IMG/VR virus record: IMGVR_UViG_3300006217_000549
Coordinates: 1-18,332 of that record
Length of the DNA stretch: 18,332 nucleotides
Strand: one strand, 5' to 3'
DNA from: a virus
The position numbers and the translations under genes were made by a program. A model generated the notes under the pieces. It was not told the DNA's origin. It saw only the letters and a list, made by a program, of their open reading frames with translations, and searched no databases. This document shows positions 180-18,332 of the stretch, piece by piece; the stretch's first letter is position 1, and every line of letters starts with the position of its first letter.

Positions 180-184
180 CGAGA

Positions 185-2393: not shown

Positions 2394-2395
2394 CT

Positions 2396-2988: not shown

Positions 2989-2997
2989 GATATTGAG

Positions 2998-4466: not shown

Positions 4467-4478
4467 AAGGAAGGTTTT

Positions 4479-4853: not shown

Positions 4854-4860
4854 TTATTGC

Positions 4861-5148: not shown

Positions 5149-5161
5149 AAGAAAGGTTAAA

Positions 5162-5341
5162 ATGGTGACAAAAATGGCAGAGTTTTGCAGGAAATGTTTC
5201 ATCAGTCGTTTAATGCCCAGCAAATATGATATAGACCATATTGTAATGAGCGAGGACGAGGACTTTTGCGAAGGATGTATGAAGTGGGGAAAATATGTAG
5301 ACCACATTGATTGCTCCGAACGCAAAGAAAATAAAGAATAA
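5162..5341 (+). CDS. small zinc-finger protein (59 aa), paralog of the N-terminus of 8856-9188
   Basis: The track ORF is trimmed to ATG 5162 (AAAGAAAGG upstream). It has CRKC and CEGC pairs. It shares ..HIVMS.D..FCEGCM....YVDHID with 8856-9188, including 15-nt and 18-nt identical DNA blocks. Confidence 0.6.
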   Translation: MVTKMAEFCRKCFISRLMPSKYDIDHIVMSEDEDFCEGCMKWGKYVDHIDCSERKENKE

Positions 5342-5357
5342 AAAAAGGAAGATTGTT

Positions 5358-5861
5358 ATGTATCAGGAACGACGTAGCGTATTTGAAACAAACTCAAGCA
5401 GCACACACAGTATTTGCATCACGAAAGACACGAGAGCAGATCATTCATATCCGAAAAAGTTGGTTTTCCGTTTGGGGGAATTCGGATGGGAGCATGAAGA
5501 ACTTTTCACGCCGGAAGAGAAGGCTGCATACCTGTATACGAGCATCTTATCTCTTCAAACCAAAGAAGAAGCAGAGCGTTCTAAAAACAAAATTTTCGCT
5601 GTGCTTGGAGAGGTCGGAATCGACTGCGAATTTGAGCAAGCGGAGTATTGGGGAGATGGCTGGCTCAGTAATGGCTATGTAGATCATGCTGGCGATGGTG
5701 ACCATTATGATTTTGTCAATAAAACACTGAATAACCGAAACAGGCTGTTACGATACCTGTTCAGTGAGCAGAGCTTTGTTCTGACCGGAAATGATAATGA
5801 CGATTATGGTGTCGGTATTGATGTAGATTACCCGCATGAGGAATACTACAAGGGAAACTAA
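5358..5861 (+). CDS. uncharacterised protein with N-terminal VFETNSSSTHSI motif (167 aa)
   Basis: The track ORF is trimmed to ATG 5358 (AAAGGAAG SD). The motif is at residues 8-19. Later acidic/His-rich segments: GYVDHAGDGDHYDF and LTGNDNDDYG. Confidence 0.7.
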   Translation: MYQERRSVFETNSSSTHSICITKDTRADHSYPKKLVFRLGEFGWEHEELFTPEEKAAYLYTSILSLQTKEEAERSKNKIFAVLGEVGIDCEFEQAEYWGDGWLSNGYVDHAGDGDHYDFVNKTLNNRNRLLRYLFSEQSFVLTGNDNDDYGVGIDVDYPHEEYYKGN

Positions 5862-5881
5862 ATTTCAGGAGGAAAAATCAA

Positions 5882-6160
5882 ATGAAGCAAATCAGAAGAG
5901 GTGTCTTTGAGACCAACAGCAGCTCCACTCACAGCATTACAATCTGCACGCTGGAAGATTACGAAAAGTTTAAGAGAGGCGAACTTCTCTATGACAGATG
6001 GGAGGAAAAACTTGTTCCGGCAGACGCAGAGCATGTTTCCAGCGACGACTGTGAGACATACAAGGAATTTGGCAGATATCTTGAAACCTATGCTGAAGGA
6101 TTTAGAACACCAAGTGGTGACGAGATTGTTGCCTTCGGGTACTATGGCTACGACGGATAA
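5882..6160 (+). CDS. uncharacterised protein with the same N-terminal VFETNSSSTHSI motif (92 aa), short paralog
   Basis: AGGAGGAAAAA SD lies upstream. Residues 8-19 are identical to those of 5358-5861 although 7 of the 12 codons differ synonymously. Confidence 0.65.
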   Translation: MKQIRRGVFETNSSSTHSITICTLEDYEKFKRGELLYDRWEEKLVPADAEHVSSDDCETYKEFGRYLETYAEGFRTPSGDEIVAFGYYGYDG

Positions 6161-6176
6161 ACGAGGTGGTAGTGAA

Positions 6177-7106
6177 ATGAATCTTCTTGGTACATATCAG
6201 AACGGGAACTACACCGTAAAAATTTATAGTGACGGCACCAAAATCCGTAAAAACGACCTGGATTTTTTCAAGCCGGAGTTCCCGGAGTCCATGGATATCA
6301 AGATTACCAATCAATGCGACAAGTTGTGCAAGTTCTGCCATGAAGCGTCGGTTCCTGATGGACGGCATGGGGACGTTATGAACCTTCCGTTTCTGGAGAC
6401 GCTGCATCCATACACAGAACTGGCCATCGGAGGCGGCAATCCTTTGTCGCACCCCGACCTGATTCCATTCCTTGAAGGGCTGAAGGAACGCAAGCTGATT
6501 CCAAGTATGACGGCCAATCAAACGCATTTCCTGGAGAATATTCCTCTGTTATCGATGCTTTCTGAACGCGAACTTCTTTATGGCCTTGGAGTTTCCTTTA
6601 TTTCAGGCACACCCCAGGATGAATTGAACAGAATGATTGGCGCACTGGAGAAATTTCCGAACGCAGTAATCCACGTCATTAACGGCATTGTGTCCGTAGA
6701 GGAACTGCGTGCGCTCGCTTTCCATGATTTCAAGGTATTGATTCTTGGGTACAAGAAATTCCGGCGCGGAGCACATAACTGGGCAGAAGACGAAGAAGAG
6801 ATTGTATCAAGGCAGCGCAATCTGTACGACGAGCTTCCCGCCATCATCCAGTCTGGGTGGTTCCATACGGTCAGCTTTGATAACCTGGCCGTCAATCAGT
6901 TAGGTGTCCGGCGACTGATGGATAGTGCATCATGGGAACGTTTCTATATGGGAGACGACGGCAACTACACGATGTATGTGGACGCTGTAAACCGCGAATA
7001 TGCAGTCTGCTCGGTATCACAGGTACGGTATCCTCTGACGGATAACATCAAGGAAATGTTTGATACGGTTCTAAAAGAGCCAGAAAGGTACAGGGCAGAT
7101 AAGTAA
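6177..7106 (+). CDS. radical SAM protein (309 aa)
   Basis: The track ORF 5901-7106 is trimmed to ATG 6177 (GAGGTGG SD). It has the CX3CX2C cluster motif ITNQCDKLCKFCHE and a GGE-like motif IGGGNPLSHPDL. No C-terminal SPASM-type cysteines are present. Confidence 0.85.
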   Translation: MNLLGTYQNGNYTVKIYSDGTKIRKNDLDFFKPEFPESMDIKITNQCDKLCKFCHEASVPDGRHGDVMNLPFLETLHPYTELAIGGGNPLSHPDLIPFLEGLKERKLIPSMTANQTHFLENIPLLSMLSERELLYGLGVSFISGTPQDELNRMIGALEKFPNAVIHVINGIVSVEELRALAFHDFKVLILGYKKFRRGAHNWAEDEEEIVSRQRNLYDELPAIIQSGWFHTVSFDNLAVNQLGVRRLMDSASWERFYMGDDGNYTMYVDAVNREYAVCSVSQVRYPLTDNIKEMFDTVLKEPERYRADK

Positions 7107-7127
7107 TTCGCTTCAAGAGGAGATAAG

Positions 7128-7499
7128 ATGTCAAAATTGTTTGTGCTTACATTGATGGTATTCTGCCACATTGTAGACGACTATTATCTGCAAGGAGTTC
7201 TTGCATCAATGAAGCAGAAGAACTGGTGGACGCAAAATACTCCGGGAAAATTATACCGGTATGACTATATCGTAGCCCTGGTTATGCACGGGTTTAGCTG
7301 GACTTTTATGGTTATGCTTCCCATAGCGGCCTTATACAGTCTAAATCCACCGTATCTGTTTTATTGGTGTTTTACTCTGAATGTTGCGATACACGCTTTT
7401 ACTGACAATGTGAAAGCCAATTTGCGAACAATCAATCTTATTATGGACCAATCGGTACATATTGAGCAAATCATCCTTACATTTTTACTTCTGACTTAA
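7128..7499 (+). CDS. DUF3307-like integral membrane protein (123 aa)
   Basis: AGAGGAGA SD. It has 3-4 hydrophobic helices. HIVDDYYLQG near the N-terminus and AIHAFTDN later resemble the H..DF.lQ / H..D signature of DUF3307. Confidence 0.6.
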   Translation: MSKLFVLTLMVFCHIVDDYYLQGVLASMKQKNWWTQNTPGKLYRYDYIVALVMHGFSWTFMVMLPIAALYSLNPPYLFYWCFTLNVAIHAFTDNVKANLRTINLIMDQSVHIEQIILTFLLLT

Positions 7500-7518
7500 A
7501 AGGTTTGGTGGTGATGTA

Positions 7519-7761
7519 ATGGCAGAATATCATGTAGGCTGTGGCGCATTTGCAATCTATACGGGCACATTAAACAGCAGAAACAAAAATCTGTGGCAGA
7601 ACAAAACTGAATGCACAGACGAAGCACTTTGCGCTGTAAGGGACTATATGGTGCAGGAGCTTCTTGGCGGTATTGACTGCCGTAAAGCCACCTCAAGCGG
7701 CTACGAATGGACGCTGAAAGACGGACGCACAGTGGAGCTTAGAGTCACAATAAAAGATTGA
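7519..7761 (+). CDS. hypothetical phage protein (80 aa)
   Basis: ATG is preceded by TTTGGTGGTG. The N-terminus MAEYHVGCGAFAIYTGTLN looks like a conserved small phage protein, but I cannot name the family. Confidence 0.6.
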   Translation: MAEYHVGCGAFAIYTGTLNSRNKNLWQNKTECTDEALCAVRDYMVQELLGGIDCRKATSSGYEWTLKDGRTVELRVTIKD

Positions 7762-7762
7762 C

Positions 7763-7792
7763 TTGATTGTAAACTATTTATTTGGCTATGAT
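7763..7792 (+). promoter_or_regulatory. candidate sigma-70 promoter TTGATT-N18-TATGAT
   Basis: -35 at 7763-7768 and -10 at 7787-7792, in the 69-nt gap before gene 7831-8082. Called by eye only. Confidence 0.3.
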
Positions 7793-7830
7793 ATTGAATT
7801 TCCAAAATCCATAATGGAGGTATATCAATA

Positions 7831-8082
7831 ATGGAGTATGAAATTGTGAATGTATACGATAGGTTCTATGATGACCAATCAAAACAGAAAAATGCAAAAT
7901 TGCTTGGGAGATTTCAGTTAATAGAGCAGGTCAAGGAAAACGAGGAATGGAGCGAACTCTTCATTGGGCGTAATATAGACACTGGGGAACTCTGTCTTAT
8001 CGAAGGATACGAAGTGCGGTATATCGACAGTGGAACCGCTTATATTGTCTACCCTCTCAAAAACATCTGTGTGAAGGAATGA
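7831..8082 (+). CDS. hypothetical phage protein (83 aa)
   Basis: ATG with TGGAGGT SD. Confidence 0.6.
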   Translation: MEYEIVNVYDRFYDDQSKQKNAKLLGRFQLIEQVKENEEWSELFIGRNIDTGELCLIEGYEVRYIDSGTAYIVYPLKNICVKE

Positions 8083-8087
8083 TTTTT

Positions 8088-8282
8088 ATGAAGGCACAAC
8101 GAATTAAATTTATCTGCATACCAGATGCGATTATCTTTGCAGATAGCAGAAAGGAAGCCATTTCTATGATTCACAAAGGAGTGTTCGAAAAATGTAAAAA
8201 TGTCATCGTATCTCTTAGCAGCGGCGAGCAATTCAATTTGCATTCTCCGCGAAGCAAAGAATACTTTGGATTGAGGATTTAG
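8088..8282 (+). CDS. hypothetical phage protein (64 aa)
   Basis: The track ORF starts at 8079 (ATGA overlap), but GAAGGA sits 9 nt before ATG 8088, so 8088 is preferred. Confidence 0.45.
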   Translation: MKAQRIKFICIPDAIIFADSRKEAISMIHKGVFEKCKNVIVSLSSGEQFNLHSPRSKEYFGLRI

Positions 8283-8344
8283 CTTTATGGGACTTGTAAT
8301 AGAAATATCTGCGTATGTTGGAGTGTGCATACTCTGGTGCAAAA

Positions 8345-8668
8345 ATGAACGACGACTTAGAAATCATGTGTCGCCTTTCAAGAGCAATTATTGCATTTAG
8401 CTACGACGATATTTTCGCCACTCCCACATGGGAACAGATGATGGAATCGTATACGATGAAAGGTAAATCCATTAACAAGAAGTATAACTGCGTTTATGCA
8501 GAGGACGGTGATATATACCTGAATCCATTCTTTGGGGATTTGTGGGTTGTTGATGGAAAATCGTTCATCAAAATAAATAACGGATATGCTATTGATATTA
8601 ACGAGCCTGAAGGATTCATCAAAGTAGGTCATATCAATGGTGTTGTCAACAAACGAATGAAAGGCTGA
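8345..8668 (+). CDS. hypothetical phage protein (107 aa)
   Basis: The track ORF 8315-8668 has an uncertain start (8315 or 8345; weak SDs for both). Confidence 0.5.
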   Translation: MNDDLEIMCRLSRAIIAFSYDDIFATPTWEQMMESYTMKGKSINKKYNCVYAEDGDIYLNPFFGDLWVVDGKSFIKINNGYAIDINEPEGFIKVGHINGVVNKRMKG

Positions 8669-8675
8669 TTTTATT

Positions 8676-8831
8676 TTGAAACAGGAATCATGGATTGCTC
8701 GAATTATAAATCGACTGTTAGAGCGTCTTGGAATAATCAAAATGTATGGAATTAGCAAAGAGGATATGTGCAAAGGTGCGCAATCTATTTGCAATAGAAA
8801 TTGTGATTCTTGCGCATGGAAAAGTGAATGA
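8676..8831 (+). CDS. possible small Cys-rich protein (51 aa, TTG start)
   Basis: Below the track's size cut-off. TTG 8676 lies 10 nt after GAAAGG. The translation ..MCKGAQSICNRNCDSCAWKSE fills an otherwise empty 187-nt gap in a tightly packed operon. Confidence 0.3.
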   Translation: MKQESWIARIINRLLERLGIIKMYGISKEDMCKGAQSICNRNCDSCAWKSE

Positions 8832-8855
8832 AAGGTTAATTTGGTGGTGGTATAA

Positions 8856-9188
8856 ATGGCAGAATTGTGTTTGAAATGTTTCCTTGAAACTTGGCGTCCA
8901 AACGCATATGACCGTGCCCATATTGTAATGAGCAAAGACAATGAGTTTTGCGAAGGATGTATGGATTGCGTTCCGTATGTAGACCATATCGACCCGTCTG
9001 ATTTGCGGCGCACTCCAACGGTAGCAGACTTTGTTCAGGTAGTGGTTCCAGAAATAAAGGCTGGGCGTAAAATTGCCTGCACAGAATGCGGTGCCACTTT
9101 TGAAGATGATGATTTGGCTTTTGCGCATGAAGTCGGTGAATGTCCATACTGCCACACACAAGTCAGGGCGCTTTGGATGAGAGAATAA
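8856..9188 (+). CDS. multi-zinc-ribbon protein (110 aa); N-terminus paralogous to 5162-5341
   Basis: TTTGGTGGTG lies upstream. It has CLKC, CEGC, CTEC and CPYC pairs, and shares ..HIVMS.D..FCEGCM with 5162-5341. Confidence 0.65.
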   Translation: MAELCLKCFLETWRPNAYDRAHIVMSKDNEFCEGCMDCVPYVDHIDPSDLRRTPTVADFVQVVVPEIKAGRKIACTECGATFEDDDLAFAHEVGECPYCHTQVRALWMRE

Positions 9189-9201
9189 TTTGGTGACGTG
9201 T

Positions 9202-9642
9202 ATGGTAAATGTACTGTTTGATAGGCTGTTGGATATGTCTGGAATTGATACAAAAGAAGTATGGTGTTGGCCCGACTCACAGCCATTTTCTCTTGAAGAT
9301 GTTTTGGAACAAAAGAAAATCGGACTCTTAGGGGATAAAACACCGTATGGAGATACATGGAGGCACCCAGTAAAAGAATCTCGTGATAGAGGATATCATA
9401 TAGCAAGGATAATTTACTTTATGGAGAATCCGCAAGAAATAGATGGAATCGAAGTAGACAATCCTTGTTTTGATAATGGTATTTTACCTGGATGTAAAAT
9501 TATTGATGGACGGCATAGAGTAGCAGCAGGAATTTTAATTGGCTTGAAAACTGTAAAAATTGAATATGGTGGTCGGTCTGATATAGAAGACTACTTAATG
9601 GGTATAAGCGAAGAACGACCGGAAGAAATTCTAACTTTATAA
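9202..9642 (+). CDS. ParB/sulfiredoxin-fold (ParB-like nuclease domain) protein
   Basis: KIIDGRHRVAAGILIGL is the ParB N-terminal-domain DGxHR signature. There is no HTH or partition-type C-terminus. The start could be TTG 9190, GTG 9193 or ATG 9202. Confidence 0.7.
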   Translation: MVNVLFDRLLDMSGIDTKEVWCWPDSQPFSLEDVLEQKKIGLLGDKTPYGDTWRHPVKESRDRGYHIARIIYFMENPQEIDGIEVDNPCFDNGILPGCKIIDGRHRVAAGILIGLKTVKIEYGGRSDIEDYLMGISEERPEEILTL

Positions 9643-9666
9643 AAGATTAGTTTGGTGGTGAGAACT

Positions 9667-9867
9667 ATGTTACAAAAGAAAAGTCTGTACTGTTTTGAGT
9701 GTGGTAAAACAACACCGCATTCTTAAATCGGGAGCAAATCAATGTATGAGGGAACTGGTCTTGCCCGTATTATTATGGCCGCTGCTTCATTTGGTATGTC
9801 AGAAACATCATGGGCAGACAAGTATTGGCAGTGTGAAGTTTGCGGTAACATCAAAAGGCATGGTTAA
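9667..9867 (+). pseudogene. zinc-ribbon gene interrupted by an in-frame TAA (9724-9726)
   Basis: ATG 9667 (TTTGGTGGTG upstream) gives MLQKKSLYCFECGKTTPHS, then TAA. The same frame continues IGSKSMYEGTGLARIIMAAASFGMSETSWADKYWQCEVCGNIKRHG to TAA 9865-9867. One CxxC knuckle lies on each side of the stop. Confidence 0.5.
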
Positions 9868-9904
9868 TAAAATAAAGTTTTCATAAAAAGTAGGAGGTTT
9901 TCTA

Positions 9905-10195
9905 ATGAATTGTGGCATATGCAAAAAGACCGATGGAATGTGTTACGCAAGCTACCCGCCTCAAGTCAGGTGTACCATTACAGGAAAATATCATCAATAT
10001 AATGATGAATGCGACGTGCCCGATAAGACTATGGAAAAGAGGGGTAAGTTAGCTGGATTTCTCACTGAAGAACTTTTGGAAGAAATTCGGCGGAGGCCAG
10101 GAGAGTCCGACCCATGTGAATTGTGTGCGTACTATCCTCCATCCAGTCTGGGCGGGAAACCATGTTCCGTATGTCCTGCTAGTGGGATAAGATAA
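9905..10195 (+). CDS. Cys-rich zinc-ribbon protein (96 aa) sharing the C-terminal module of 4861-5148
   Basis: AGGAGG SD. The C-terminal CELCAYYPPSSLGGKPCSVCPAS parallels CDLCMYNPPSSTDGKPCSMCPAG of the Lar-like protein. Confidence 0.65.
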   Translation: MNCGICKKTDGMCYASYPPQVRCTITGKYHQYNDECDVPDKTMEKRGKLAGFLTEELLEEIRRRPGESDPCELCAYYPPSSLGGKPCSVCPASGIR

Positions 10196-10264
10196 CTTCA
10201 TCTGTTTCCTTCTGGGACGCAGGGACAGTCTGAATCTATTTTGCAGGCGATATGTAAAAGGATA

Positions 10265-10295
10265 CCAGCCGTCGCACGTAATGCAGAACGGCTGG
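10265..10295. terminator. hairpin between convergent transcription units (CCAGCCGT-N15-ACGGCTGG)
   Basis: Perfect 8-bp GC-rich stem read directly. There is no clean U-tract on either strand, so terminator function is uncertain. Confidence 0.3.
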
Positions 10296-10337
10296 CAGAC
10301 AGACTTTCGCCGAATTTACGGAGTTGGAAACTACTCA

Positions 10338-10610
10338 TTACTGAGCAGCCGGGCGGACGATCACCCTTTCTTTAATACATTCTGATTTGAAGTAATCCCG
10401 TACAGTTCCATGCAATGATCTAGCCGTTTGGTCAAAAAATGTATCCATGTCACATTCAGCATCATCACTGGTATGTTCCCGATAATAACAGAATTTGACC
10501 GCCTGGATTACTTTGTCGATTTGACCGCATAAATTTTCGCAACACTTACTTCTATTGGTACAAGAACTTGTCCTTACCTCAGAAGCGTTTGTGGAATTTC
10601 TATTGGTCAT
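10338..10610 (-). CDS. hypothetical Cys-rich protein (90 aa)
   Basis: ATG ORF without its own SD. A strong SD (AAGAGGTG) instead serves a 17-codon upstream ORF (10653-10600) that overlaps this start. Confidence 0.45.
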   Translation of the reverse strand: MTNRNSTNASEVRTSSCTNRSKCCENLCGQIDKVIQAVKFCYYREHTSDDAECDMDTFFDQTARSLHGTVRDYFKSECIKERVIVRPAAQ

Positions 10611-10766
10611 GTTTACCCAAGCTGTTACTACACAAATTGTGTGGATGAGTCATTTCTGCTCACCTCTTACAGTCACCTGCAAGTTCAGACTGTGCCTTCA
10701 TCCCAGAGGGATGCTCCGTGTCCAGTCGTTAGATATTCAGTATCTACAAACAAAGCAGACTCTCTA

Positions 10767-11306
10767 TTAAAAAGGCCATTTTGTATATATACTATATGCA
10801 AAAAGGAATATTGAAAATGTAAGCATGACAGCAAACATAATCCTCCATACAGCGAAAGTTTGAATGCGAGCAAGTAGATTCTTATAAAGAAATTTAGTCT
10901 CTTGATCTAAATGCAATTTTAAATTATACTCTTCTCCAGAAATAAATATTGTACGCCTTTTTAATGTATGATGGGCAATCATTACCGGACGGTTTATCGT
11001 TGGGCCTGACATTTCCTTGATTATTTGCTCAATAGCATACAATTGTTCGGAATCTGCAATCTCCATCAATCTGCCACGTTCAAATTGCTGCCAGGATGCA
11101 AAGGCAACTAAAACCGAAATAAAAGAAATACAACAACATATTATGTCTGGTACATCACCAAAAGAGATTCCCCACAAAATTGATTCAGCTGTAAAAAGTA
11201 AAGCTGGTACATTCCAAACTAATTCATTATGAATTTGTTGCCTGTTTGACAATACTTGATATTGTATCTCAAGAAAACTGACATCTATACCGCTTTTATC
11301 GTTCAT
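10767..11306 (-). CDS. membrane protein (179 aa): N-terminal helix, 2-TM hairpin, amphipathic middle, C-terminal TM
   Basis: GAAAGGGA SD 7 nt upstream. Hydrophobic segments are VPALLFTAESILWGISF, IICCCISFISVLVAFASW and FAVWRIMFAVMLTFSIFLFAYSIY. It has its own strong promoter. Confidence 0.7.
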   Translation of the reverse strand: MNDKSGIDVSFLEIQYQVLSNRQQIHNELVWNVPALLFTAESILWGISFGDVPDIICCCISFISVLVAFASWQQFERGRLMEIADSEQLYAIEQIIKEMSGPTINRPVMIAHHTLKRRTIFISGEEYNLKLHLDQETKFLYKNLLARIQTFAVWRIMFAVMLTFSIFLFAYSIYTKWPF

Positions 11307-11383
11307 TCTAATGTCCCTTTCTATTTATTGTAACCATCTATGTAAAAGATTCGTCATAAGAAATCAAAGTAAAATACAATCAG

Positions 11384-11412
11384 AGTATAACATATTTTTG
11401 GATGAAATGCAA
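11384..11412 (-). promoter_or_regulatory. sigma-70 promoter TTGCAT-N17-TATACT with extended -10 (TGT), driving 10767-11306
   Basis: Read on the minus strand: -35 at 11412-11407, -10 at 11389-11384, 17-nt spacer ending in TGT. Confidence 0.5.
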
Positions 11413-11509
11413 CATCAATATGGAACATTCACATTTTCTGGTATATACGCAAAACCTACACTCATATAAAAGCCTTATCGGAAATAGAATATACAGGAGG
11501 TGGAGCTAT

Positions 11510-11653
11510 GTGAAAAGGCAAGAGTTAAAATACATCTTCATAAATCCTAATACACAAGAAGACACAACAAAAGCATTGCAAAAAATTATTGTAGATAAAA
11601 TATTGCAGCTCGATAACAATCGAAAAATGCAAACAACTGATCAGGCAACCTAA
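11510..11653 (+). CDS. possible small protein (47 aa, GTG start) upstream of the serine recombinase
   Basis: AGGAGGTGGAG SD lies 4-9 nt before GTG 11510. The longer track ORF from 11402 has no SD. Confidence 0.35.
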   Translation: MKRQELKYIFINPNTQEDTTKALQKIIVDKILQLDNNRKMQTTDQAT

Positions 11654-11680
11654 ACCCATATGACAGCAATGATAAAAGTC

Positions 11681-11709
11681 TTTATCTTTGCTGTCATTTA
11701 TGTTATAAT
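11681..11709 (+). promoter_or_regulatory. candidate promoter with extended -10 (TGTTATAAT) for the serine recombinase
   Basis: TGnTATAAT at 11701-11709, with a weak -35 TTTATC at 11681-11686 (17-nt spacer). Confidence 0.4.
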
Positions 11710-11752
11710 GATTATGGGTATAGGTTGGTTATTGAAAGGAGAACCAACGAAA

Positions 11753-13261
11753 ATGAGAATAGCCGCATATTGCCGTGTATCAACCGATGAAGAGAAACAG
11801 CTTGATAGCTTGGCGAACCAGAAAAATTTTTTTGAAGAGTATGCAGCAAAGAATGGTCACGTATTAGTACGTTTGTATGCTGATGAGGGCATTTCTGGGA
11901 CCAGCTTGAAAAAGCGTGACGAGTTTATTAGACTTCTATACGATGCCAAACTTGGATTATTTGACATGGTTGTTGTTAAAGACGTATCCAGGCTGGCAAG
12001 GAATACAGTAGACTTCCTGCAAAGCATCCGTACACTGAAAGGACTTGGAATAAATACACTGTTTCTCACTTCAAATATGGACAGCCTTGGTGAATCAGAA
12101 TTCGTCCTTACGTTATTTGGTGCTATGGCGCAGGAAGAAAGCGCTAATCTTAGCAAGCGAGTAAAATTTGGCAAAGAAATCAGCGCAAAAAAAGGCAGGG
12201 TTCCGCAGAGAGTTTTCGGATATGATAGAATCGACAACTTTACTCTCGTTATCAATGAAAAAGAAGCACAGATTGTTCGTGAAATTTACCGTATGTATAT
12301 TGAAGAAGGGCTTGGATGTCGCAAAATCAGTATTAAATTAAACGAATCTGGACATAAAACAAAATTTAATTGTGAATGGAACCCAAGAGGTGTTAGGCGT
12401 GTACTAGAAAATCCAATCTATAGTGGACACTATATCAATCACAAATATGAAGTTGGAGACTACTTAGTAGGAAAGGTAGTACGTACTCCAGAGGACCAGC
12501 ACTTTCACCATGATAGGCCAGAATGGGAGATCGTGTCTCCGGAAACATTTGCAAAAGCACAAAAACAGTTAGAAATGCGTCGAAAACAATATAATACCGG
12601 AGAACCATTTATGCAGGCACGATACAGTAGCAAGTACATATTTAGCACTCTAATCAAATGTGAACATTGCGGTCGTTCCTTTTCAAGAAAAGTCCACAAA
12701 TATGTTAATACTTATATATATTGGGTATGTCCAACAAATTATCAATACACAGCAGAAAAATGTGATAATAAAACTAAATTAAGAGAGGACATCCTTCTTT
12801 CTAAAGTCAAAGAATATCTTGCATCATTGATTCAAGACAAAAGCACTTTTGTAAATAAGATAATTGAAGAAATAGAGAAACAAAATCAAACAAAATGCAT
12901 CAAACATGATGCCTCAGATATAAAAATGAAGCGTAAACGTCTCATCGCAAAAAAAGAACGATACCAGGAAATGTACGCAAATGATGTAATGACCATGACC
13001 GAACTAAAAGAAAAGACAGCCGCAATTGCAGAAGAGCTAGAACGGCTTGACTGCTCAATGAAACAATATGCGCAAATGATTGCTTTTCAAAAGAATGGAG
13101 AAGATTACATAAGGCGTTATATACAAGATATCGAGCAATTCCTAAATATGGAGACAGTAACGAACATAGATATGCGAAAAGTAATAAGTCGTATCACAGT
13201 AAACAAAGACAAAACCATAAAAATTGAACTGAAGAAATTTGATATCGATGACATACTATAG
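11753..13261 (+). CDS. large serine recombinase (phage integrase type, 502 aa)
   Basis: The track ORF is trimmed to ATG 11753 (AAAGGAGAA SD). It has the resolvase catalytic domain MRIAAYCRVSTDEEKQ..., then the recombinase domain, the zinc-ribbon CEHCGRSF..WVCPTN..EKCDN, and a C-terminal coiled coil. Confidence 0.92.
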   Translation: MRIAAYCRVSTDEEKQLDSLANQKNFFEEYAAKNGHVLVRLYADEGISGTSLKKRDEFIRLLYDAKLGLFDMVVVKDVSRLARNTVDFLQSIRTLKGLGINTLFLTSNMDSLGESEFVLTLFGAMAQEESANLSKRVKFGKEISAKKGRVPQRVFGYDRIDNFTLVINEKEAQIVREIYRMYIEEGLGCRKISIKLNESGHKTKFNCEWNPRGVRRVLENPIYSGHYINHKYEVGDYLVGKVVRTPEDQHFHHDRPEWEIVSPETFAKAQKQLEMRRKQYNTGEPFMQARYSSKYIFSTLIKCEHCGRSFSRKVHKYVNTYIYWVCPTNYQYTAEKCDNKTKLREDILLSKVKEYLASLIQDKSTFVNKIIEEIEKQNQTKCIKHDASDIKMKRKRLIAKKERYQEMYANDVMTMTELKEKTAAIAEELERLDCSMKQYAQMIAFQKNGEDYIRRYIQDIEQFLNMETVTNIDMRKVISRITVNKDKTIKIELKKFDIDDIL

Positions 13262-13265
13262 AACC

Positions 13266-13311
13266 TACCTATTTGATGTCAATGACATCTACAACTGACA
13301 TCAAATAGGTA
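13266..13311. repeat. 46-bp palindrome: perfect 16-bp arms TACCTATTTGATGTCA / TGACATCAAATAGGTA with a 14-nt spacer (candidate att site or hairpin)
   Basis: Arms at 13266-13281 and 13296-13311 were read directly. It starts 4 nt after the recombinase stop. An inner alternative pairing GATGTCA-A-TGACATC is also present. Confidence 0.85.
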
Positions 13312-13350
13312 TGTACAATCACCAACCTATACCCTATTAAATAGTATAGA

Positions 13351-13392
13351 AAAAATTAGGGAAAACCAATCACAAAGACTGGTTTTCCCTAA
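13351..13392 (-). terminator. rho-independent terminator of the CoiA-like gene
   Basis: Minus strand reads TTAGGGAAAACCA-(11 nt)-TGGTTTTCCCTAA followed by TTTTT. It starts 5 nt after the stop codon. Confidence 0.7.
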
Positions 13393-13396
13393 CGAA

Positions 13397-14641
13397 TTAC
13401 AATTTATAACAAATCGAACACAATCCCAAGTTGATTTTTCCTGGGCCTCCATATTCAGCAAATTCAGAACTCTGTTTTACCTCCCCACAACACTCACATT
13501 GAATCCAGCGGCGTGTAAACTTATCATATGTAGGCATTTCCGCACAAGGGTTGAAAATCTTTTTTATTCTATTTTCCTCAGCGAGAAGTTCTTCTGCACT
13601 TGCCGTCTCTGGCCGTCTTATTTCAAGTTCAGGAATTTGTAGTGTTGTAATAGCCGGACGGTTTGCAGCCGTGCTACGACTTTGAAATTTCGCAAACATT
13701 TGCTGCTGTTCTATATACATTTGTCTGTTTCGTTTTCTCTTTTCCTCTTCTTTTTTTATATTCCAATCATTACGCTCTTGAATTTTTGCTATTTTATTCT
13801 GTAAAATTTTTGGGTCCTTATAGAAATCTTTATGTGATTGAATTCCTGATTTAGCTATACATAAAAAATAATCCTGTTCCCCAACATTAAAAGGACAATA
13901 TACACAATTTGTCCAGTGTACAGTATATCTACCCTGATATTTTCTAATATGAATTGGGCATTCCCAATCAGGGTCTTCTGCATCATGAGCCTTTTCAACG
14001 AAACGTTTTTTCCATTTGTCAATCAATTCACTTCTAATCCATTTTTGCTCTATGTCTTTAGATGCTATAAATTTTCTCAAATTATCCGGAAAAAAGAAAC
14101 TCTCATCGTCAATATTTGGGAAATAGCATAATAAAGACGAATAGTTTTCATTTCTTGATTCCTTTTCAAAGTTTTGTAAATCTTCTTTTGAATAATAGTA
14201 GTCAAACTCCAATAATATCCGTAATTTGCTTCCAGAGACAGTCAAAAACAGATTAGGAGGATACTGTAATGGTTCACAACTAAATTCTACATTTTCTATA
14301 GAGACATATCGACCTGGCTTCAACAGGTCACCACGTCTCCATGCAGGAAAAGAAAGTATAATTGGTGGGAGGTAAAAGCGGCGCAATTCGTCAAGGATAC
14401 CTGCAACTGCCTTATAAATTGAAACTTCGCTTGCATATAAGCAATCATAATTGGATACATGAGCGAAGTGGTGTTTCCTGACTGAACCTTTTCTTGCTTC
14501 CAACGGCTTGTTGCAAGCGCAGCAAACACAACCACATTTTTCTCCGCTTACTACCTCAGAAATATGTCTAATATTACCTGTAACAGAATCTTTTCCAAAC
14601 AGTATATTATGCGCGGTTCTCTTTTTTACATTGTTCCCCAT
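13397..14641 (-). CDS. CoiA-like protein with additional Cys/His clusters, a coiled coil and a C-terminal zinc ribbon (414 aa)
   Basis: The track ORF is trimmed to ATG 14641 (AGGAGAA SD). CVCCACNKPLEARKGSVRKHHFAHVSNYDC matches the CoiA N-terminal C..C..G....HFAH....C signature. Further features are CPIH..CVYCP, the K/E-rich segment IKKEEEKRKRNRQ, and the C-terminal CECCG..CSIC. Confidence 0.7.
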   Translation of the reverse strand: MGNNVKKRTAHNILFGKDSVTGNIRHISEVVSGEKCGCVCCACNKPLEARKGSVRKHHFAHVSNYDCLYASEVSIYKAVAGILDELRRFYLPPIILSFPAWRRGDLLKPGRYVSIENVEFSCEPLQYPPNLFLTVSGSKLRILLEFDYYYSKEDLQNFEKESRNENYSSLLCYFPNIDDESFFFPDNLRKFIASKDIEQKWIRSELIDKWKKRFVEKAHDAEDPDWECPIHIRKYQGRYTVHWTNCVYCPFNVGEQDYFLCIAKSGIQSHKDFYKDPKILQNKIAKIQERNDWNIKKEEEKRKRNRQMYIEQQQMFAKFQSRSTAANRPAITTLQIPELEIRRPETASAEELLAEENRIKKIFNPCAEMPTYDKFTRRWIQCECCGEVKQSSEFAEYGGPGKINLGLCSICYKL

Positions 14642-14674
14642 AATATTCTCCTGCAATTTTCAATCTATTTTATA

Positions 14675-14703
14675 ATCATACACATTTTTACAGGATATTG
14701 CAA
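14675..14703 (-). promoter_or_regulatory. sigma-70 promoter TTGCAA-N17-TATGAT for the CoiA-like gene
   Basis: Minus strand: -35 at 14703-14698, -10 at 14680-14675, exact 17-nt spacer. It lies between the endolysin terminator and the CoiA-like start. Confidence 0.5.
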
Positions 14704-14723
14704 TACATTTATTTTTGGAACTC

Positions 14724-14764
14724 AAAAAAATAGGGGAACCAATCAACTATGATTAGTTCCCCTA
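14724..14764 (-). terminator. rho-independent terminator of the lysis operon
   Basis: Minus strand reads TAGGGGAACTAATCA-(4 nt)-TGATTGGTTCCCCTA (15-bp stem, one mismatch) followed by TTTTTTT. It lies 25 nt after the endolysin stop. Confidence 0.75.
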
Positions 14765-14789
14765 CGTTATAATGAAATACTATTAACTT

Positions 14790-15410
14790 TTACACCTTGC
14801 CAACCAACTTAGCGAACCGATACAACATGGTACACATTTGTTGTTTAGTAATATTCTGAGCAAGACCGAGGTCTCCGTTTTGGTTTCCCTTGATAATCCC
14901 ATTTTTAACGGCCCATTCTACCGCATCCTTATGGGCAGGGCTTGGCACATTGTTCACAGGCTGAACCTCCTTTTTGTAATCTGGCCGGATATACGCAGTA
15001 ACAGTAGAAGTCTTTCGTGTCCGGCGGCAAACCATACCGCCGTTAGACTGACTCCCAACGGTCCCTGGCGATGTATTCCCTTCGATTGCTGTAATCGTAC
15101 CGTTTCCAACAGATTCTACAATCCCCGTATGTCCAAAATTGTAGATGATGATGTCTCCTGGAGCAGGTGTCTTGACTACACTGGATGGAAGATTCTTCTT
15201 ATACCATCCGAGAAGCGCGGAGCAAGAAGCTGTCTTATACGGCAAAGGCATTCCAGCCTGTGAAAAGCAGTAAAGGACAAACATCACACACCATGCCACG
15301 CCATTCCAGCCATACCAGACTCCATATTTCTGCTTATTAGAGTTTGCCGGGCTTTCCTTTGTTCCGATTTCTCTCCTGGCAATATCAAGAACTTCATTAA
15401 CCGTTGCCAT
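14790..15410 (-). CDS. CHAP-domain peptidoglycan hydrolase (endolysin) with a C-terminal SLH-like wall-binding repeat
   Basis: GGAGG SD. The CHAP catalytic Cys context is NGVAWCVMFV and the His context is FGHTGIVESV. The C-terminal HKDAVEWAVKNGIIKGNQNGDLGLAQNITKQQMCTMLYRF resembles an S-layer-homology motif. Confidence 0.85.
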   Translation of the reverse strand: MATVNEVLDIARREIGTKESPANSNKQKYGVWYGWNGVAWCVMFVLYCFSQAGMPLPYKTASCSALLGWYKKNLPSSVVKTPAPGDIIIYNFGHTGIVESVGNGTITAIEGNTSPGTVGSQSNGGMVCRRTRKTSTVTAYIRPDYKKEVQPVNNVPSPAHKDAVEWAVKNGIIKGNQNGDLGLAQNITKQQMCTMLYRFAKLVGKV

Positions 15411-15711
15411 TATACGCCTCCAATTGCCGATGGAGCTTCAGAACTGCCGCCTCGATAGCGTTGTCCACCTCTTTGTCCTCTAAGTAATATCCTTTTTCGG
15501 ACAGAAAATCCAAGACATACTGCTTTCTTTCAGCACCATCCAAATCATGAAAGAGCTGTTGGGCAGCGGCAACAGCAATCTCTACCCACTTCAACATATC
15601 CTCTCGTTCCTGCGCTGTGGTCTTCCGTCTAATCCACGGAATCAGAAATGCAGCGATAAGCGCTGAAACCAAAGTTACAATAGCTTCTACAACTGGCGTC
15701 AAATTGACCAT
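15397..15711 (-). CDS. holin, LL-H-family-like (104 aa)
   Basis: A single N-terminal TM (VVEAIVTLVSALIAAFLIPWI) is followed by a charged helical tail ending ..DNAIEAAVLKL. It lies immediately upstream of the endolysin and overlaps it by 14 nt. Confidence 0.7.
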   Translation of the reverse strand: MVNLTPVVEAIVTLVSALIAAFLIPWIRRKTTAQEREDMLKWVEIAVAAAQQLFHDLDGAERKQYVLDFLSEKGYYLEDKEVDNAIEAAVLKLHRQLEAYNGNG

Positions 15712-15767
15712 AAGATACCTTCTTTCCCCGGAATCATTCCGGCATCATAATTTTTAGCCTTAATTGT

Positions 15768-16028
15768 TCATATATCTTCGTTATACTGTGTATCTGTGCT
15801 ATCCGTATATCCAAAAATACCGCCGTTGTTATGTTCAAAAATATTTTCAACGACCTTCATGGCATTTACGCCAAAAAGCGTAGAAATTGCCTGCTGACTC
15901 AACTCCGTTACAGGAAACGGCTGTCCTAAGCAAACTGTCGAGTATATAGCAATAAGATATGATATGCTAACCCATCCCAGCGCAGCTATCTGCGTAGTAA
16001 TAAATAATCCCCTGGTTACGCTTTTCAT
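15768..16028 (-). CDS. small membrane protein (86 aa), translationally coupled to the tyrosine recombinase
   Basis: GGGAGG SD lies inside the recombinase 3' end, and the ATG overlaps the recombinase TGA (ATGA at 16025-16028). It has one clear TM (GLFITTQIAALGWVSISYLIAIY). Confidence 0.55.
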   Translation of the reverse strand: MKSVTRGLFITTQIAALGWVSISYLIAIYSTVCLGQPFPVTELSQQAISTLFGVNAMKVVENIFEHNNGGIFGYTDSTDTQYNEDI

Positions 16029-17062
16029 TCTGACCTCCCCAATTCACTCAAGGCAGTTGACTGAGGCGCAATAATCTCTCCGCCTGAAAAATACTTCCCT
16101 ATCTCTTCATCCTTATCAAGGTCAACATAAACGCGAACCATATCGGCGGAATCCCAGCCAACAATAGATTGAATCACGGAATCCGGAAGATTTGCTTTTG
16201 CCAAAGACGTAGTGAAGAAATGCCGGAGACTGTGCCAATAAATCGGAACACCCAAAATATTAGAGAACGTCTCCGCCCAACTATTCAATGTAGAAATAGG
16301 AACTGGACGTGTGGGGTCATTTCTATCAGGAAACAGCCATTCACTGTTAATGTGTTCCTCCTGACGTTTTTGCATCCATAAATCGAGATACGGACTGAAT
16401 GGTTTTGCCAGCACATAGCAAGTCAGCATTTTCCCATTCACTCCCCTTCCCTTTGTCCTGATTTTCTCAGGTGTCTTGTAAAGGGAGCCATAAATAATGT
16501 TCGCGTCGTCGAAGTACGAAACCTTGAATCTGACCAGTTCTGACTTACGTCGGCCAGAATACCGCGCCAAGGCGAAGCAGCAGGCTTTCTCATACTGGCC
16601 ATGCTCTACCAAATAATTCAGAAGCCTGTCTGCCTGTTCATCTGTCAACACAGTTTTTTCTCTTGCTGGCTCATTAACTGGATTCTCAATTTTTCTGATA
16701 ATTGACCGGAAGTTTGGCAGCTCATCGTCCAGAATCGCCTCAATATAGTTACTCATAGAGGAAAGCGTACTTTTCAACCGGCGCACGCGGGCGGGAGAGT
16801 TCTCGTTTGTTCTAATCAGCCAATTCTGATAGGCCACGATATCCCGCTTACTTATTTCAGGAAAATATTTATTTTCAGCATATTGAAGTACCCATACAAA
16901 GAAAATATTCAAATCACTTTCATACGCATGAACCGTAGTCTCTGCTTTTCCAACGCTCCGCAGATATTCCAGAAAATCGTTCATCAGCCTGATATTCTTT
17001 GGATTTATCTGCGAAACCAGCTCCGGAGTACAAATCCTATTTTGCTTTGTCTTACGTCCCAT
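16025..17062 (-). CDS. tyrosine site-specific recombinase (phage-integrase family, 345 aa)
   Basis: The track ORF is trimmed to ATG 17062 (GGAGGTGAGAGTT upstream). It has an N-terminal SAM-like core-binding domain (..TVHAYESDLNIFFVW..). Catalytic elements are ARYSGRRKSEL, HSLRHFFTT and MVRVYVD (Tyr). Confidence 0.9.
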   Translation of the reverse strand: MGRKTKQNRICTPELVSQINPKNIRLMNDFLEYLRSVGKAETTVHAYESDLNIFFVWVLQYAENKYFPEISKRDIVAYQNWLIRTNENSPARVRRLKSTLSSMSNYIEAILDDELPNFRSIIRKIENPVNEPAREKTVLTDEQADRLLNYLVEHGQYEKACCFALARYSGRRKSELVRFKVSYFDDANIIYGSLYKTPEKIRTKGRGVNGKMLTCYVLAKPFSPYLDLWMQKRQEEHINSEWLFPDRNDPTRPVPISTLNSWAETFSNILGVPIYWHSLRHFFTTSLAKANLPDSVIQSIVGWDSADMVRVYVDLDKDEEIGKYFSGGEIIAPQSTALSELGRSE

Positions 17063-17153
17063 AACTCTCACCTCCTAATACAGAGAGGGCCGCACCATTA
17101 AAGTACGACCCTAGGAATGCTCACAAAATAAGAGTTTTATTAACTTTTCTACC

Positions 17154-17447
17154 TCAGTCCAAAATCAGGGTGTCGCCTTTGACTTCATAGCATTTTCCCT
17201 TGAAGTAAACACGCGCAGGCATATTACCGACACTATAAACCAGCTTGCCACCCTTGACACGCACCTTGTCCAGAGAACCAGTACCGGTATCCAAAAGACC
17301 ATACGCATTTTCTTCACCGGGTTTAATGACATTCTTCTGTGGGTCGATGTAAAGCCCGCCGGGTAAAGCGGCAAGAGCTTCGTTGGCTTCCTCCAGAGTC
17401 TTTTCGCCAGTGGTGTAATCTCTGATGATTTCGTTAATTTGTTCCAT
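17154..17447 (-). CDS. hypothetical phage protein (97 aa)
   Basis: The track ORF is trimmed to ATG 17447 (GAAAGGA 8 nt upstream). Confidence 0.6.
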   Translation of the reverse strand: MEQINEIIRDYTTGEKTLEEANEALAALPGGLYIDPQKNVIKPGEENAYGLLDTGTGSLDKVRVKGGKLVYSVGNMPARVYFKGKCYEVKGDTLILD

Positions 17448-17492
17448 AGTATACATCCTTTCTTATTTGTTATGTATTATGTTTATAGGTTC

Positions 17493-17906
17493 TTACAGAA
17501 ATTCTTTCAACCCCAATGCAACGGCGATGATGGCGAAAACCACTCCCAAAATCCATCCGATGCCCTGCTTCTTAATATGTTCCCAGGTTTCTCCTGGCTT
17601 ACTGTTTATGGCATCGACTTCAGCCTCCAGTTTATTTACATCGTTTTCCAGGTCATCAACTTTATCAACTTTGGTGGTAATAGTAGTCAGCTTCTCAAGA
17701 ATATTCTTACTGTCACCCTTCACCTCGTTCAGGGTCCCCATAATCATTCCGAGCTGACCCCTCTGTTCCGCGTATTCGAGTTCGAGCTTATGGATGTCCT
17801 CACGCATCATTCGATGGTCTTCCCCGTTGCGCCGTTCGAGAGCTGCAAACCTGTCCTCCAATGATTCAAGTGCGCCGCATCCGTTTTTATCACAATTTTC
17901 AGACAT
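17493..17906 (-). CDS. xhlA: XhlA-like lysis-associated protein (137 aa)
   Basis: The track ORF is trimmed to ATG 17906 (GGAAGGAGG SD). It has a long coiled-coil region and a single C-terminal TM (GIGWILGVVFAIIAVALGL), as in haemolysin XhlA-family proteins of Bacillus/Clostridium prophage lysis modules. Confidence 0.65.
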   Translation of the reverse strand: MSENCDKNGCGALESLEDRFAALERRNGEDHRMMREDIHKLELEYAEQRGQLGMIMGTLNEVKGDSKNILEKLTTITTKVDKVDDLENDVNKLEAEVDAINSKPGETWEHIKKQGIGWILGVVFAIIAVALGLKEFL

Positions 17907-17932
17907 TTTTACCTCCTTCCTTTTTATGCAAC

Positions 17933-17973
17933 AACGCCGCCTGTACATTTTTGTAGGGACGGCGTTACTTTTT
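17933..17973 (+). terminator. imperfect hairpin followed by TTTTT on the plus strand (terminator-like; faces antisense to the lysis genes)
   Basis: AACGCCG (17933-17939) pairs with CGGCGTT (17960-17966), with extra inner pairs, then ACTTTTT. On the minus strand no U-tract follows. Confidence 0.3.
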
Positions 17974-18216
17974 GATTCAGATTTCGACCACCAGCTACTC
18001 AGCGACCTCCTTGGTGGGCATCCCAGCTTCCTTTGATTTCGTCAGGACTGCCCTCATAGAGAGCGGATGGAGAAGGTTTTCCTTCTTTTCTTCAAGAGTG
18101 GTAATTTCTTCTTGCTTTTTGGAATCTTGACGTCAATCATAGCACTGCCTGTCTTATAACGATGTCAGACGATCTTTTTCGATAAGCTGAAATGATAAAG
18201 TCTTCTTATTGTCTAG

Positions 18217-18332
18217 GGCTTGTTTGAAAAATCAAGGAAGGAGTGCTAAATCAATAAAACAGCGATAGAGGCAAGGTAAACAAAGGCAAGAAACGAAGCA
18301 TCCAGCTTGTCATATCTGGTGGCAATCCTGCG
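18217..18332 (-). mobile_element. terminal part of an IS5-family insertion sequence (continues beyond the window)
   Basis: It contains the transposase 3' end. The putative terminal repeat GGCTTGTTTGAAAAATC begins at 18217, directly after CTAG (18213-18216), a classic IS5 YTAR target. Confidence 0.55.
18246..18332 (-). CDS. IS5-family (DDE_Tnp_1) transposase, C-terminal 28 codons only
   Basis: Minus-strand translation RRIATRYDKLDASFLAFVYLASIAVLLI* matches the characteristic IS5/IS427-group C-terminus (F.RIATRYDK....FLA.V.LA). Confidence 0.7.
   Translation of the reverse strand, partial: RRIATRYDKLDASFLAFVYLASIAVLLI

Follow-up and report, generated by a model that had tools for sequence, protein, structure and literature searches.

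A CoiA-like cargo gene with a putatively rewired nuclease-fold site, next to attP in a temperate phage

CoiA was recently shown to be a D-loop resolvase of natural transformation, in which it acts together with RadA. Classical phage morons are genes with their own promoter and terminator that are inserted between conserved genes. CoiA prefers single-stranded DNA (ssDNA) and D-loops, and substitution of the aspartate of its second β-strand or the glutamate of its third (D95A or E105A) abolishes function (bioRxiv 10.1101/2024.02.06.579203). A single-protein anti-phage system with a CoiA domain has also been validated experimentally in E. coli (Vassallo et al., 2022, PMC9519451). Here, we describe a gene for a 414-aa CoiA-like protein in an 18,332-nt stretch of viral DNA (IMG/VR record IMGVR_UViG_3300006217_000549, positions 1 to 18,332; hereafter the window). 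In this temperate phage, the gene is a cargo cassette of its own at the end nearest attP. It was acquired from a lineage whose other members travel on integrative and conjugative elements, next to genes for restriction and defence. Judged from its sequence, the product is a CoiA-like member of the PD-(D/E)XK group whose site has been rewired and which has gained a tail of helix and ribbon. Our preferred, though tentative, explanation is that this horizontally acquired cargo gene encodes a DNA-binding protein without canonical cleavage, expressed in the lysogen and acting in exclusion or defence between mobile elements.

A one-gene cassette beside attP

The cargo gene is the last gene before attP, and its start codon is backed by homologues, which begin at the same MxxNVKKR (Table 1). 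It lies behind the lysis genes and between two intrinsic terminators, T2 upstream and T1 downstream, both of which passed a terminator scan and were compared with 200 shuffled sequences each. T2 folds with a minimum free energy (MFE) of -25.5 kcal/mol (z -7.7) and T1 with one of -25.9 kcal/mol (z -8.1), and 0/200 shuffles folded equally well in either case. A promoter-like site and the Shine-Dalgarno sequence both fall inside the 150-nt gap downstream of T2, and the promoter-like site is favoured because of its place in this gap rather than because of its sequence. The two terminators have a 9-mer core (TGATTGGTT) and TAGGG/CCCTA ends in common, and a 22-nt direct repeat joins them at 73% identity. 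Their global alignment scores 12, against -6.8 ± 4.1 in shuffles that lose the hairpin and T-run structure, none of which (0/2000) reaches 12. This likeness would fit an origin of one terminator as a copy of the other.

Metagenomic contigs show where the gene sits in a lysogen. Three of them (L001-L003) encode the exact 414-aa protein in chromosomally integrated copies, and the same protein recurs at 100% identity across several samples. The integrated copies match the window at 99.96% identity over 4.9 kb (13288-18215), and identity stops exactly at window base 13288, the centre of an inverted repeat that adjoins the 3' end of the integrase gene (junctions at L001 11354, L002 5501 and L003 5404). 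With a slash marking the junction, the window reads ...GATGTCAGTTGTAGA/TGTCATTGACATC and the integrated copy ...GATGTCAGTTGTAGA/AGCCGTGGACCCC. Beyond it, the integrated copy continues into host DNA of 56% GC and then into Amidase_3, RadA-like and Crp-type genes, of which the RadA-like gene is a case of mere adjacency. Since identity breaks at the centre of the inverted repeat into host DNA, the window is the attP (unintegrated) form of the phage. In the lysogen, the cargo ORF is the last gene at one end of the prophage, with the integrase at the other. We assign the phage to a gut-bacterial host of Oscillospiraceae type. In the integrated form, a 137-aa ORF without a Pfam match spans the junction into host DNA, and the phage may insert within a host gene.

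The composition and setting of the gene are those of cargo. Its GC content is 36.1%, compared with 46.5% for the endolysin, ~46% for the holin, 43.8% for a tyrosine recombinase of the late region, 36% for the integrase region and 56% for the host flank. In related IMG/VR phages, with endolysin identities of up to 68%, a slot of 2-4 kb separates the endolysin from a convergent serine integrase; its content varies, consisting of small genes of unrelated kinds and in no case of the CoiA-like gene. The endolysin-to-integrase slot is therefore a cargo hotspot worth mining.

These results support the preliminary description of the locus in most of its parts. A 414-aa ORF between two strong terminators after the lysis genes is what T1, T2, the holin and endolysin genes and the Shine-Dalgarno sequence show, and the resemblance that it saw between the terminators is real, if modest. 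The neighbour beyond T1 is indeed an integrase, more exactly a large serine recombinase; its plus-strand gene and the cargo gene converge on attP, which lies between them. The idea of an autonomous moron keeps the gene's own terminator, insulation by T2, the att position, deviant GC content and the variable slot, but the promoter is an ordinary 9/12 match.

The cargo gene points towards the integrase gene, with 80 nt between it and attP, an arrangement that would also suit an accessory of the serine integrase, such as a recombination directionality factor or an architectural protein of the att site. The product is a multi-zinc protein that probably binds DNA, and a small excisionase-like HTH_17 gene follows at 7/24 homologue loci, which would agree with such a role. 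We nevertheless consider it very unlikely: most homologues have no serine integrase nearby and stand beside restriction or defence genes or in a type IV secretion system (T4SS) module, and related phages with similar serine integrases do without this gene. To our knowledge, directionality factors do not resemble a 414-aa protein with a nuclease-fold core. On the homologue context, the directionality factor was rejected as a candidate. Rfam and tRNA scans of the window were both empty, and an RNA element or a tRNA att site was dropped on these grounds.

Several other features of the phage deserve mention. A second recombinase, of the tyrosine type (Phage_integrase with a SAM-like N domain; 16025-17071, minus strand), lies in the late region directly upstream of the holin gene. 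The identity between the window and the integrated copy also breaks off at 18215, near DUF285/tail-type genes in L001, which could reflect mosaicism or else a variable tail-fibre region under recombinase control. In the early region, three plus-strand genes at 2614-2988, 3729-4466 and 5901-7106 match PHROG families for a GTP-binding domain, a PAPS-reductase-like protein and an Fe-S oxidoreductase (radical-SAM-like), and may form a DNA- or nucleotide-modification module.

The nuclease-fold core and its replaced site

The first domain of the protein is a true CoiA_N zinc finger. Pfam matches it over residues 37-69 at E 8.5e-7 (28.8 bits against a cutoff of 26.3), with a sub-threshold match to DUF7830 overlapping the same stretch, and CoiA_N is matched in 31/31 members of the subfamily. 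A search of 5.8 billion proteins returned 49 matches, about 40 of them full-length at 36-84% identity and all of them unnamed. The alignment of the full-length homologues has 46 invariant columns, among which are all 15 zinc ligands. AlphaFold2, run with the homologue alignment, gives a model with a pLDDT of 85 in which the finger is made of small β-hairpins and is followed by an α/β core, a helix, a linker (residues 326-343, pLDDT <50) and a β-ribbon. The second zinc cluster and the C-terminal ribbon, each submitted to Pfam alone, matched no model.

The core can be placed through more distant relatives. A profile search over 1.84 billion representatives returned 5,821 cluster representatives at E ≤ 1e-3 and 2,511 at E ≤ 1e-10, with 144 close ones at E ≤ 1e-30. 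Many members of this superfamily are ~285 aa long and span the finger, the core and the Cys4 cluster, of which Pfam sees CoiA_N only. They show a textbook PD-(D/E)XK site: ETSLHLxAK in the first helix, I-I-P-D at the start of β2 and L-L-I-E-I-x-V-T-H in β3. In hhalign, the subfamily of the window protein aligns with these intact-motif relatives at 100% probability (E 1.5e-51) over 268 columns; the core is aligned without gaps, so the correspondence of residues is secure. Both groups share invariant C36, C38, C40, C43, H58, H61, C67, P92, P129, W201, C228, C246, C249 and C261.

At the catalytic positions the two groups part, as counted in 34 intact-motif relatives and 31 subfamily members. Position 130 is D in 34/34 relatives, whereas the subfamily has L, E, M, V, D, N and others, with D in 3/31 and a hydrophobic residue in 16/31 (L 7, M 5, V 3, I 1); the window protein has N. 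Position 143, E in 33/34 relatives, is L, I, F or V in 31/31 subfamily members (L in the window protein). H76 (34/34) has become Y (30/31) and K154 (33/34) has become D (30/31), while T147 (30/34) and H148 (32/34) are variable in the subfamily and read D and Y in the window protein. Conversely, position 141 is hydrophobic in the relatives and R in 31/31 subfamily members, position 145 is variable and then D or E in 30/31, and positions 149 and 150 are variable and then Y in 31/31 each. E72, kept in 31/31, is the sole PD-(D/E)XK signature residue left in the window protein. The comparison thus indicates that the canonical site is gone from the whole subfamily and that other conserved residues have replaced it. 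By strand periodicity, the new residues probably lie on the same strand face as the old site.

Such a pattern resembles coordinated replacement rather than decay, with positions E72, H76, D130, E143, T147, H148 and K154 of the relatives giving way to five new invariant or near-invariant residues, and it raises the possibility that the protein is still an enzyme. Its scaffold would have been rebuilt around E72, R141, D/E145, Y149, Y150 and D154, either as a nuclease with migrated residues or for other nucleic-acid chemistry, in a single-gene defence or toxin effector. R141 and D/E145 would lie on the same side of β3 as the lost glutamate, E72 is retained throughout, and the validated CoiA-domain defence protein is itself a single gene (PMC9519451). 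Migration of catalytic residues is a known feature of the PD-(D/E)XK superfamily (PMC3424549, PMC1189080). On the other side, the β2 aspartate is the most conserved catalytic residue of that superfamily and is variable here, with hydrophobic residues in about half of the members; the models match no other enzyme class, and an antitoxin-like or immunity partner is not conserved. We regard an enzyme of this kind as somewhat unlikely. Loss of the canonical residues and a family without annotation anywhere could also betray a decaying nuclease remnant without present function, which is scarcely credible given an ORF intact at 414 aa, some 40 full-length homologues that keep the invariant columns and every zinc ligand, confident AlphaFold2 models and identical copies of the protein in several samples. 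With 46 invariant columns, we therefore argue that the protein is functional, and a pseudogene was rejected on conservation.

The predicted fold was also compared with solved structures and with viral models. A model of residues 62-225 alone reaches a pLDDT of 92.7 and has its elements in α-β-β-β-α-β order, with a helix at 9-25, strands including 69-74 and 77-85, a helix at 91-104 and a strand at 107-113 (add 61 for protein residues). The weak Foldseek matches of the core in the PDB include the Holliday-junction resolvase-type entry Hjc (2wiw_A, probability 0.97, TM 0.37/0.48), RecU entries and the archaeal splicing endonuclease EndA (3ajv, probability 1.0, rmsd 3.2 Å over 59 columns). Among viral models (BFVD), four unnamed entries match at probability 1.0, and weaker matches bear the names 'Restriction enzyme', 'Competence protein' and 'PD-(D/E)XK nuclease'. 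Similarity to TDP2/EEP proteins was discarded as spurious (rmsd ~15 Å, TM ~0.1-0.2, with full-length and domain models alike), and a sequence-profile search of the PDB found nothing. Assignment to the PD-(D/E)XK fold therefore comes mainly from homology to motif-carrying proteins.

The earlier reading of the protein from its letters stands up well. The CoiA signature at its N-terminus is real, the CoiA-type acidic residues are indeed missing (N130, L143), which the relatives bear out and which holds for the whole subfamily, and the C-terminal CxxC..CxxC ribbon consists of invariant C382, C385, C408 and C411. In the CPxH..CxxCP cluster, C228, C246, C249 and C261 are invariant while H231 is not, and the K/E-rich segment taken for a coiled coil is there as one predicted helix. 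The profile and structure searches then proposed recover CoiA_N and, through the relatives, PD-(D/E)XK homology, but no CoiA_nuc domain and no PDB match beyond the weak ones above. Two longer family members, P0054 (539 aa) with a C-terminal DUF4268 and P0059 (545 aa) with an N-terminal DUF7662, carry domains otherwise found on neighbouring genes; they may be genuine fusions but look like gene-calling read-through, and were not used.

Table 1. Features of the cargo locus, domains of its product and variable slots of related phages (window positions unless a phage is named)
Feature	Position	Strand	Remarks
Large serine recombinase (integrase), 533 aa	11660-13261	+	Pfam Resolvase, Recombinase and Zn_ribbon_recom; PHROG 95 at E 8e-121
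attP of the serine integrase	13258-13319		24-nt imperfect inverted repeat, 13258-13281 / 13296-13319; crossover near 13288
T1, intrinsic terminator of cargo gene	13355-13393	-	17-bp stem, T6 run
Cargo gene, 414 aa	13397-14641	-	start ATG at 14641
C-terminal zinc ribbon	13409-13510	-	RRW..C382xxC385 ... C408xxC411; invariant columns
K/E-rich helix, then disordered linker	13673-13813	-	residues 277-323 (47 residues); AlphaFold2 secondary structure
Second zinc cluster	13859-13960	-	C228 ... C246-x2-C249 ... C261; invariant in subfamily and distant relatives
α-β-β-β-α-β core	13991-14434	-	residues 70-217; PD-(D/E)XK-core homologue; D to N130, E to L143
CoiA_N zinc finger	14435-14545	-	residues ~33-69; Pfam PF25164; invariant C36, C38, C40, C43, H58, H61, C67
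Shine-Dalgarno sequence AGGAGA	14647-14652	-	5 nt ahead of ATG, read from sequence (AGGAG, 14652-14648)
Promoter-like site TTGCAA-N17-TATGAT	14675-14703	-	9/12 match, without TG extension; assigned by position alone
T2, intrinsic terminator of holin/endolysin (late) transcript	14730-14765	-	16-bp stem, T7 run
CHAP/SLH endolysin	14790-15410	-	Pfam/PHROG match; late operon end, upstream of cargo gene
Holin	15397-15711	-	Pfam/PHROG match; late operon end
Variable slot, related phage L041	5630-8300		
Variable slot, related phage L044	1790-4139		
Variable slot, related phages L045/L046	5625-9650		
Variable slot, related phage L062	5495-9373		
Variable slot, related phage L073	5543-7968		

Carriers, neighbours and candidate roles

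Homologues of the cargo gene live on mobile elements of gut Clostridia. We located 20 in species-representative genomes, all of Clostridia and mostly of Oscillospiraceae (Pseudoflavonifractor, Oscillibacter, Dysosmobacter, Lawsonibacter), with Ruminococcus as well and one in a Prevotella-labelled bin. Nearly all of the ~25 contexts are a prophage, a conjugative or integrative element, or a defence island. One homologue adjoins GmrSD_N and an IS200 transposase; others lie between a conserved block (Endonuclea_NS_2, DUF4317, OB-fold/HD, DUF7662, CoiA) and either Vsr-Z1-DUF4420 or SNF2/NOV_C with DUF1156, near DUF4062/TIR proteins, inside a T4SS module on the opposite strand, or on an element with AbiEii, S24/HTH and ImmA-like genes. 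The exception is P0007, which stands beside RecJ, outside the mobile or defence settings assigned. Homologues thus occur in the mobile or defence contexts that had been anticipated, and not in the same post-lysin slot of related phages; a place inside competence operons, which would have spoken for a different role, was never seen, competence genes being found at none of the ~25 contexts.

Among 124 neighbours taken within ±4 genes in 16 genomes, the families at the top of the list, as raw counts without a background comparison, belong mainly to restriction and defence: GmrSD_N 9, ResIII 7, N6_Mtase 6, DUF4268 5, HsdM_N 5, GmrSD_C 5, HSDR_N 4 and SWI2_SNF2 4 by Pfam, and mad2 9, type I methyltransferases 6 and HEC-06 5 by PADLOC. 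Clustering of neighbours across 24 loci revealed no general constant partner. The commonest neighbours are the HTH_17 gene mentioned above (81 aa) and a 317-aa CoiA nuclease (5/24), both of them in one family of related elements. We observed 317-aa ORFs of this kind, with CoiA_N and CoiA_nuc domains, in gut-Clostridia integrative elements (L008 5439-6392, L014 5050-6003, L023, L035 and L036), within the conserved block. Apparently active CoiA-type nucleases are thus also to be found on mobile elements, away from competence.

More distant relatives are found on 1,213 PLSDB plasmids, 1,013 of them conjugative and mostly of the enterobacterial IncHI2 type, with 25-27% identity over residues 2-210. 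On plasmid pCE1537-A (L018 9010-10092, WP_033487958.1), a distant relative annotated as a 360-aa hypothetical protein lies beside hha and the ter (tellurite) operon. Taken together, carriers and neighbours point to conflict between mobile elements, and for this gene a role in defence or exclusion is suggested solely by the genes around its homologues.

The explanation that we favour, exclusion or defence by a lysogen-expressed DNA-binding protein, would run as follows. Its own transcription unit would supply the protein without recourse to the late operon, presumably in the lysogen. The three zinc modules would bind DNA, probably in single-stranded or branched form by analogy with CoiA, and the protein would not cut it by the canonical mechanism. 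Binding would interfere with incoming or competing DNA, to the benefit of the carrier element. DNA is the likely ligand because of the CoiA-type finger, because the tail is swapped for a topoisomerase-type zinc ribbon in relatives, and because of the preference of CoiA for ssDNA and D-loops. Lysogen-expressed exclusion or defence is favoured for two reasons: terminators insulate the gene at the end of the prophage, and E. coli has a validated CoiA-domain defence system (PMC9519451).

The same neighbourhoods could be read the other way round, as counter-defence or interference with recombination. The protein would then act as a decoy or dominant-negative factor on DNA ends, D-loops or junctions, or pair with active CoiA-like or PD-(D/E)XK nucleases, and so shield its element from host nucleases or from removal by recombination or transformation. 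Nuclease families often hold non-catalytic paralogues that pair with catalytic ones, as in the subunits of the archaeal splicing endonuclease, and the best local Foldseek superposition is with such a paired enzyme (3ajv). The active 317-aa nuclease lies 1-3 genes upstream on the same integrative element at its five loci, the homologue there is part of the conserved block that precedes variable restriction and defence cargo, one copy is within a conjugation (T4SS) module, and the plasmids with distant relatives are predominantly conjugative. However, an active CoiA-like partner is absent across the 18-kb window, a gene that closes the prophage, shut off by a terminator and provided with a promoter-like site of its own, fits lysogenic better than early-entry expression, the protein has no likeness to any known anti-defence protein, and heterodimerisation would be pure conjecture. 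We see counter-defence as possible, though on the unlikely side.

Several results weigh against exclusion or defence by the lysogen, or leave it less firmly placed than its outline suggests. Transcription of the gene in a lysogen is a prediction, and the promoter match behind it is ordinary: its earlier description as near-consensus was overstated, for matches at the 9/12 level are common in the region (26 in 5.5 kb, against 16.8 ± 4.5 in shuffles). When we tested whether the cassette travels with the gene, the twin terminators proved specific to the phage copy and absent at most other homologue loci, so a copied gene-plus-terminator cassette can be proposed for this locus only. Carriage by phages is rare, with no homologue in 50,697 isolate phage records (INPHARED, tblastn) or in IMG/VR (pattern scan). 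For the protein, Foldseek searches of the PDB with the full-length and domain models gave no match at E ≤ 1e-3, PADLOC 2.0 reported only the N-terminus of DruB (E 0.0089, in the zinc-finger region) and Cas1 (0.032), and neither PHROGs nor NCBIfam had a match. As to cleavage, position 130 is still D or E in 10/31 subfamily members, and R141, D/E145, Y149, Y150 and D154, which by strand periodicity probably lie on or near the former active-site face, could make a new catalytic site. Since the hotspots that collect defence genes collect counter-defence genes too, the neighbourhood speaks for neither direction of effect in particular, and the data suit counter-defence, or a new enzymatic activity of the rebuilt site, about equally well.

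A bolder proposal, which we consider doubtful, is that of a neofunctionalised CoiA-like protein. A pocket of E72, Y76, R141, D/E145, Y149, Y150 and D154 would have been rebuilt on the triple-zinc scaffold, creating a new single-gene conflict module of phages and conjugative elements. It might clamp or chemically mark D-loops or branched or incoming ssDNA, and thereby block rival recombination, transformation or replication; alternatively, it might poison the active CoiA-like nucleases of the same elements.

Whatever the activity, the superfamily is large, unannotated and clearly under selection, and the CoiA_N finger heads it on plasmids, on integrative elements and in one phage. If this branch proves to be a true defence or counter-defence family, a non-canonical and possibly non-nucleolytic mechanism would be added to the single-gene systems, and a common 'hypothetical protein' of the mobile elements of gut Clostridia would gain a function. 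The locus offers a clean experimental handle, being a one-gene cassette with defined boundaries and a mapped attP next to it.

Comparison with known systems

With CoiA proper (S. pneumoniae CoiA and B. subtilis YjbF; PF25164 and PF06054), the window protein has in common an HFAH-bearing N-terminal finger and, behind it, a nuclease-fold core. Profile comparison by hhalign relates CoiA_nuc-type proteins to the window family at 87% probability (E 4e-6), a similarity carried by the finger and the Cys cluster, and to the intact-motif relatives at 95.9% probability over the finger and first helix only, where the E/H motif of the first helix aligns. In contrast to CoiA, the CoiA_nuc domain (PF06054) matches 0/31 subfamily members at E ≤ 1, and the aspartate and glutamate essential to CoiA are replaced. 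The window protein adds C36 and C38 in the finger, the long helix and the C-terminal ribbon, and its family belongs to mobile elements of Oscillospiraceae and other Clostridia rather than being a chromosomal competence gene. We therefore regard the protein as CoiA-like in its predicted architecture and not as a member of the CoiA family sensu stricto.

Two groups of relatives stand closer in their setting or their sequence. The 317-aa CoiA_N and CoiA_nuc proteins of integrative and conjugative elements line up finger, core and CP..CxxC..C cluster as the window protein does and occur on the same element types, at times on the same element at the short distance given above. Unlike the window family, they keep intact HRAD and EFQHS catalytic motifs (20 proteins aligned) and have neither the long helix nor the C-terminal ribbon, and similarity between the two cores is undetectable by profile comparison. 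The ~285-aa proteins with CoiA_N, PD-(D/E)XK core and Cys4 cluster, a group that takes in hypothetical proteins of IncHI2-type plasmids, are clear homologues, but their ETSLH / PD / ExxVTH..K site is intact and they lack the helix-plus-ribbon tail or have a Zn_ribbon_Top1 at that place. As for structural relatives, Hjc, RecU and the archaeal splicing endonuclease are the best geometrically sensible matches of the core (all at E >1e-3), with identities <13% and catalytic residues that the window protein does not share.

The validated CoiA-domain system of E. coli, which by our reckoning is probably the PADLOC model PD-T7-5 (PMC9519451), differs from the window protein in its catalytic residues, replaced here, and the window protein has no PD-T7-5 match at E ≤ 1; a distant relative (P0135) has a weak one in the core (E 0.0057). 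Both are stand-alone genes with CoiA-type domains carried by mobile elements or prophages, and the phage-defence phenotype is that of the E. coli system. Set against classical morons, the family has its other members on conjugative and integrative elements and is not known from any other phage, with lysogen expression predicted in the present case. The locus nonetheless resembles a moron in being flanked by terminators, in its promoter-like site, in a GC content unlike that of the late genes, in occupying a slot that varies among related phages and in its place next to the att site.

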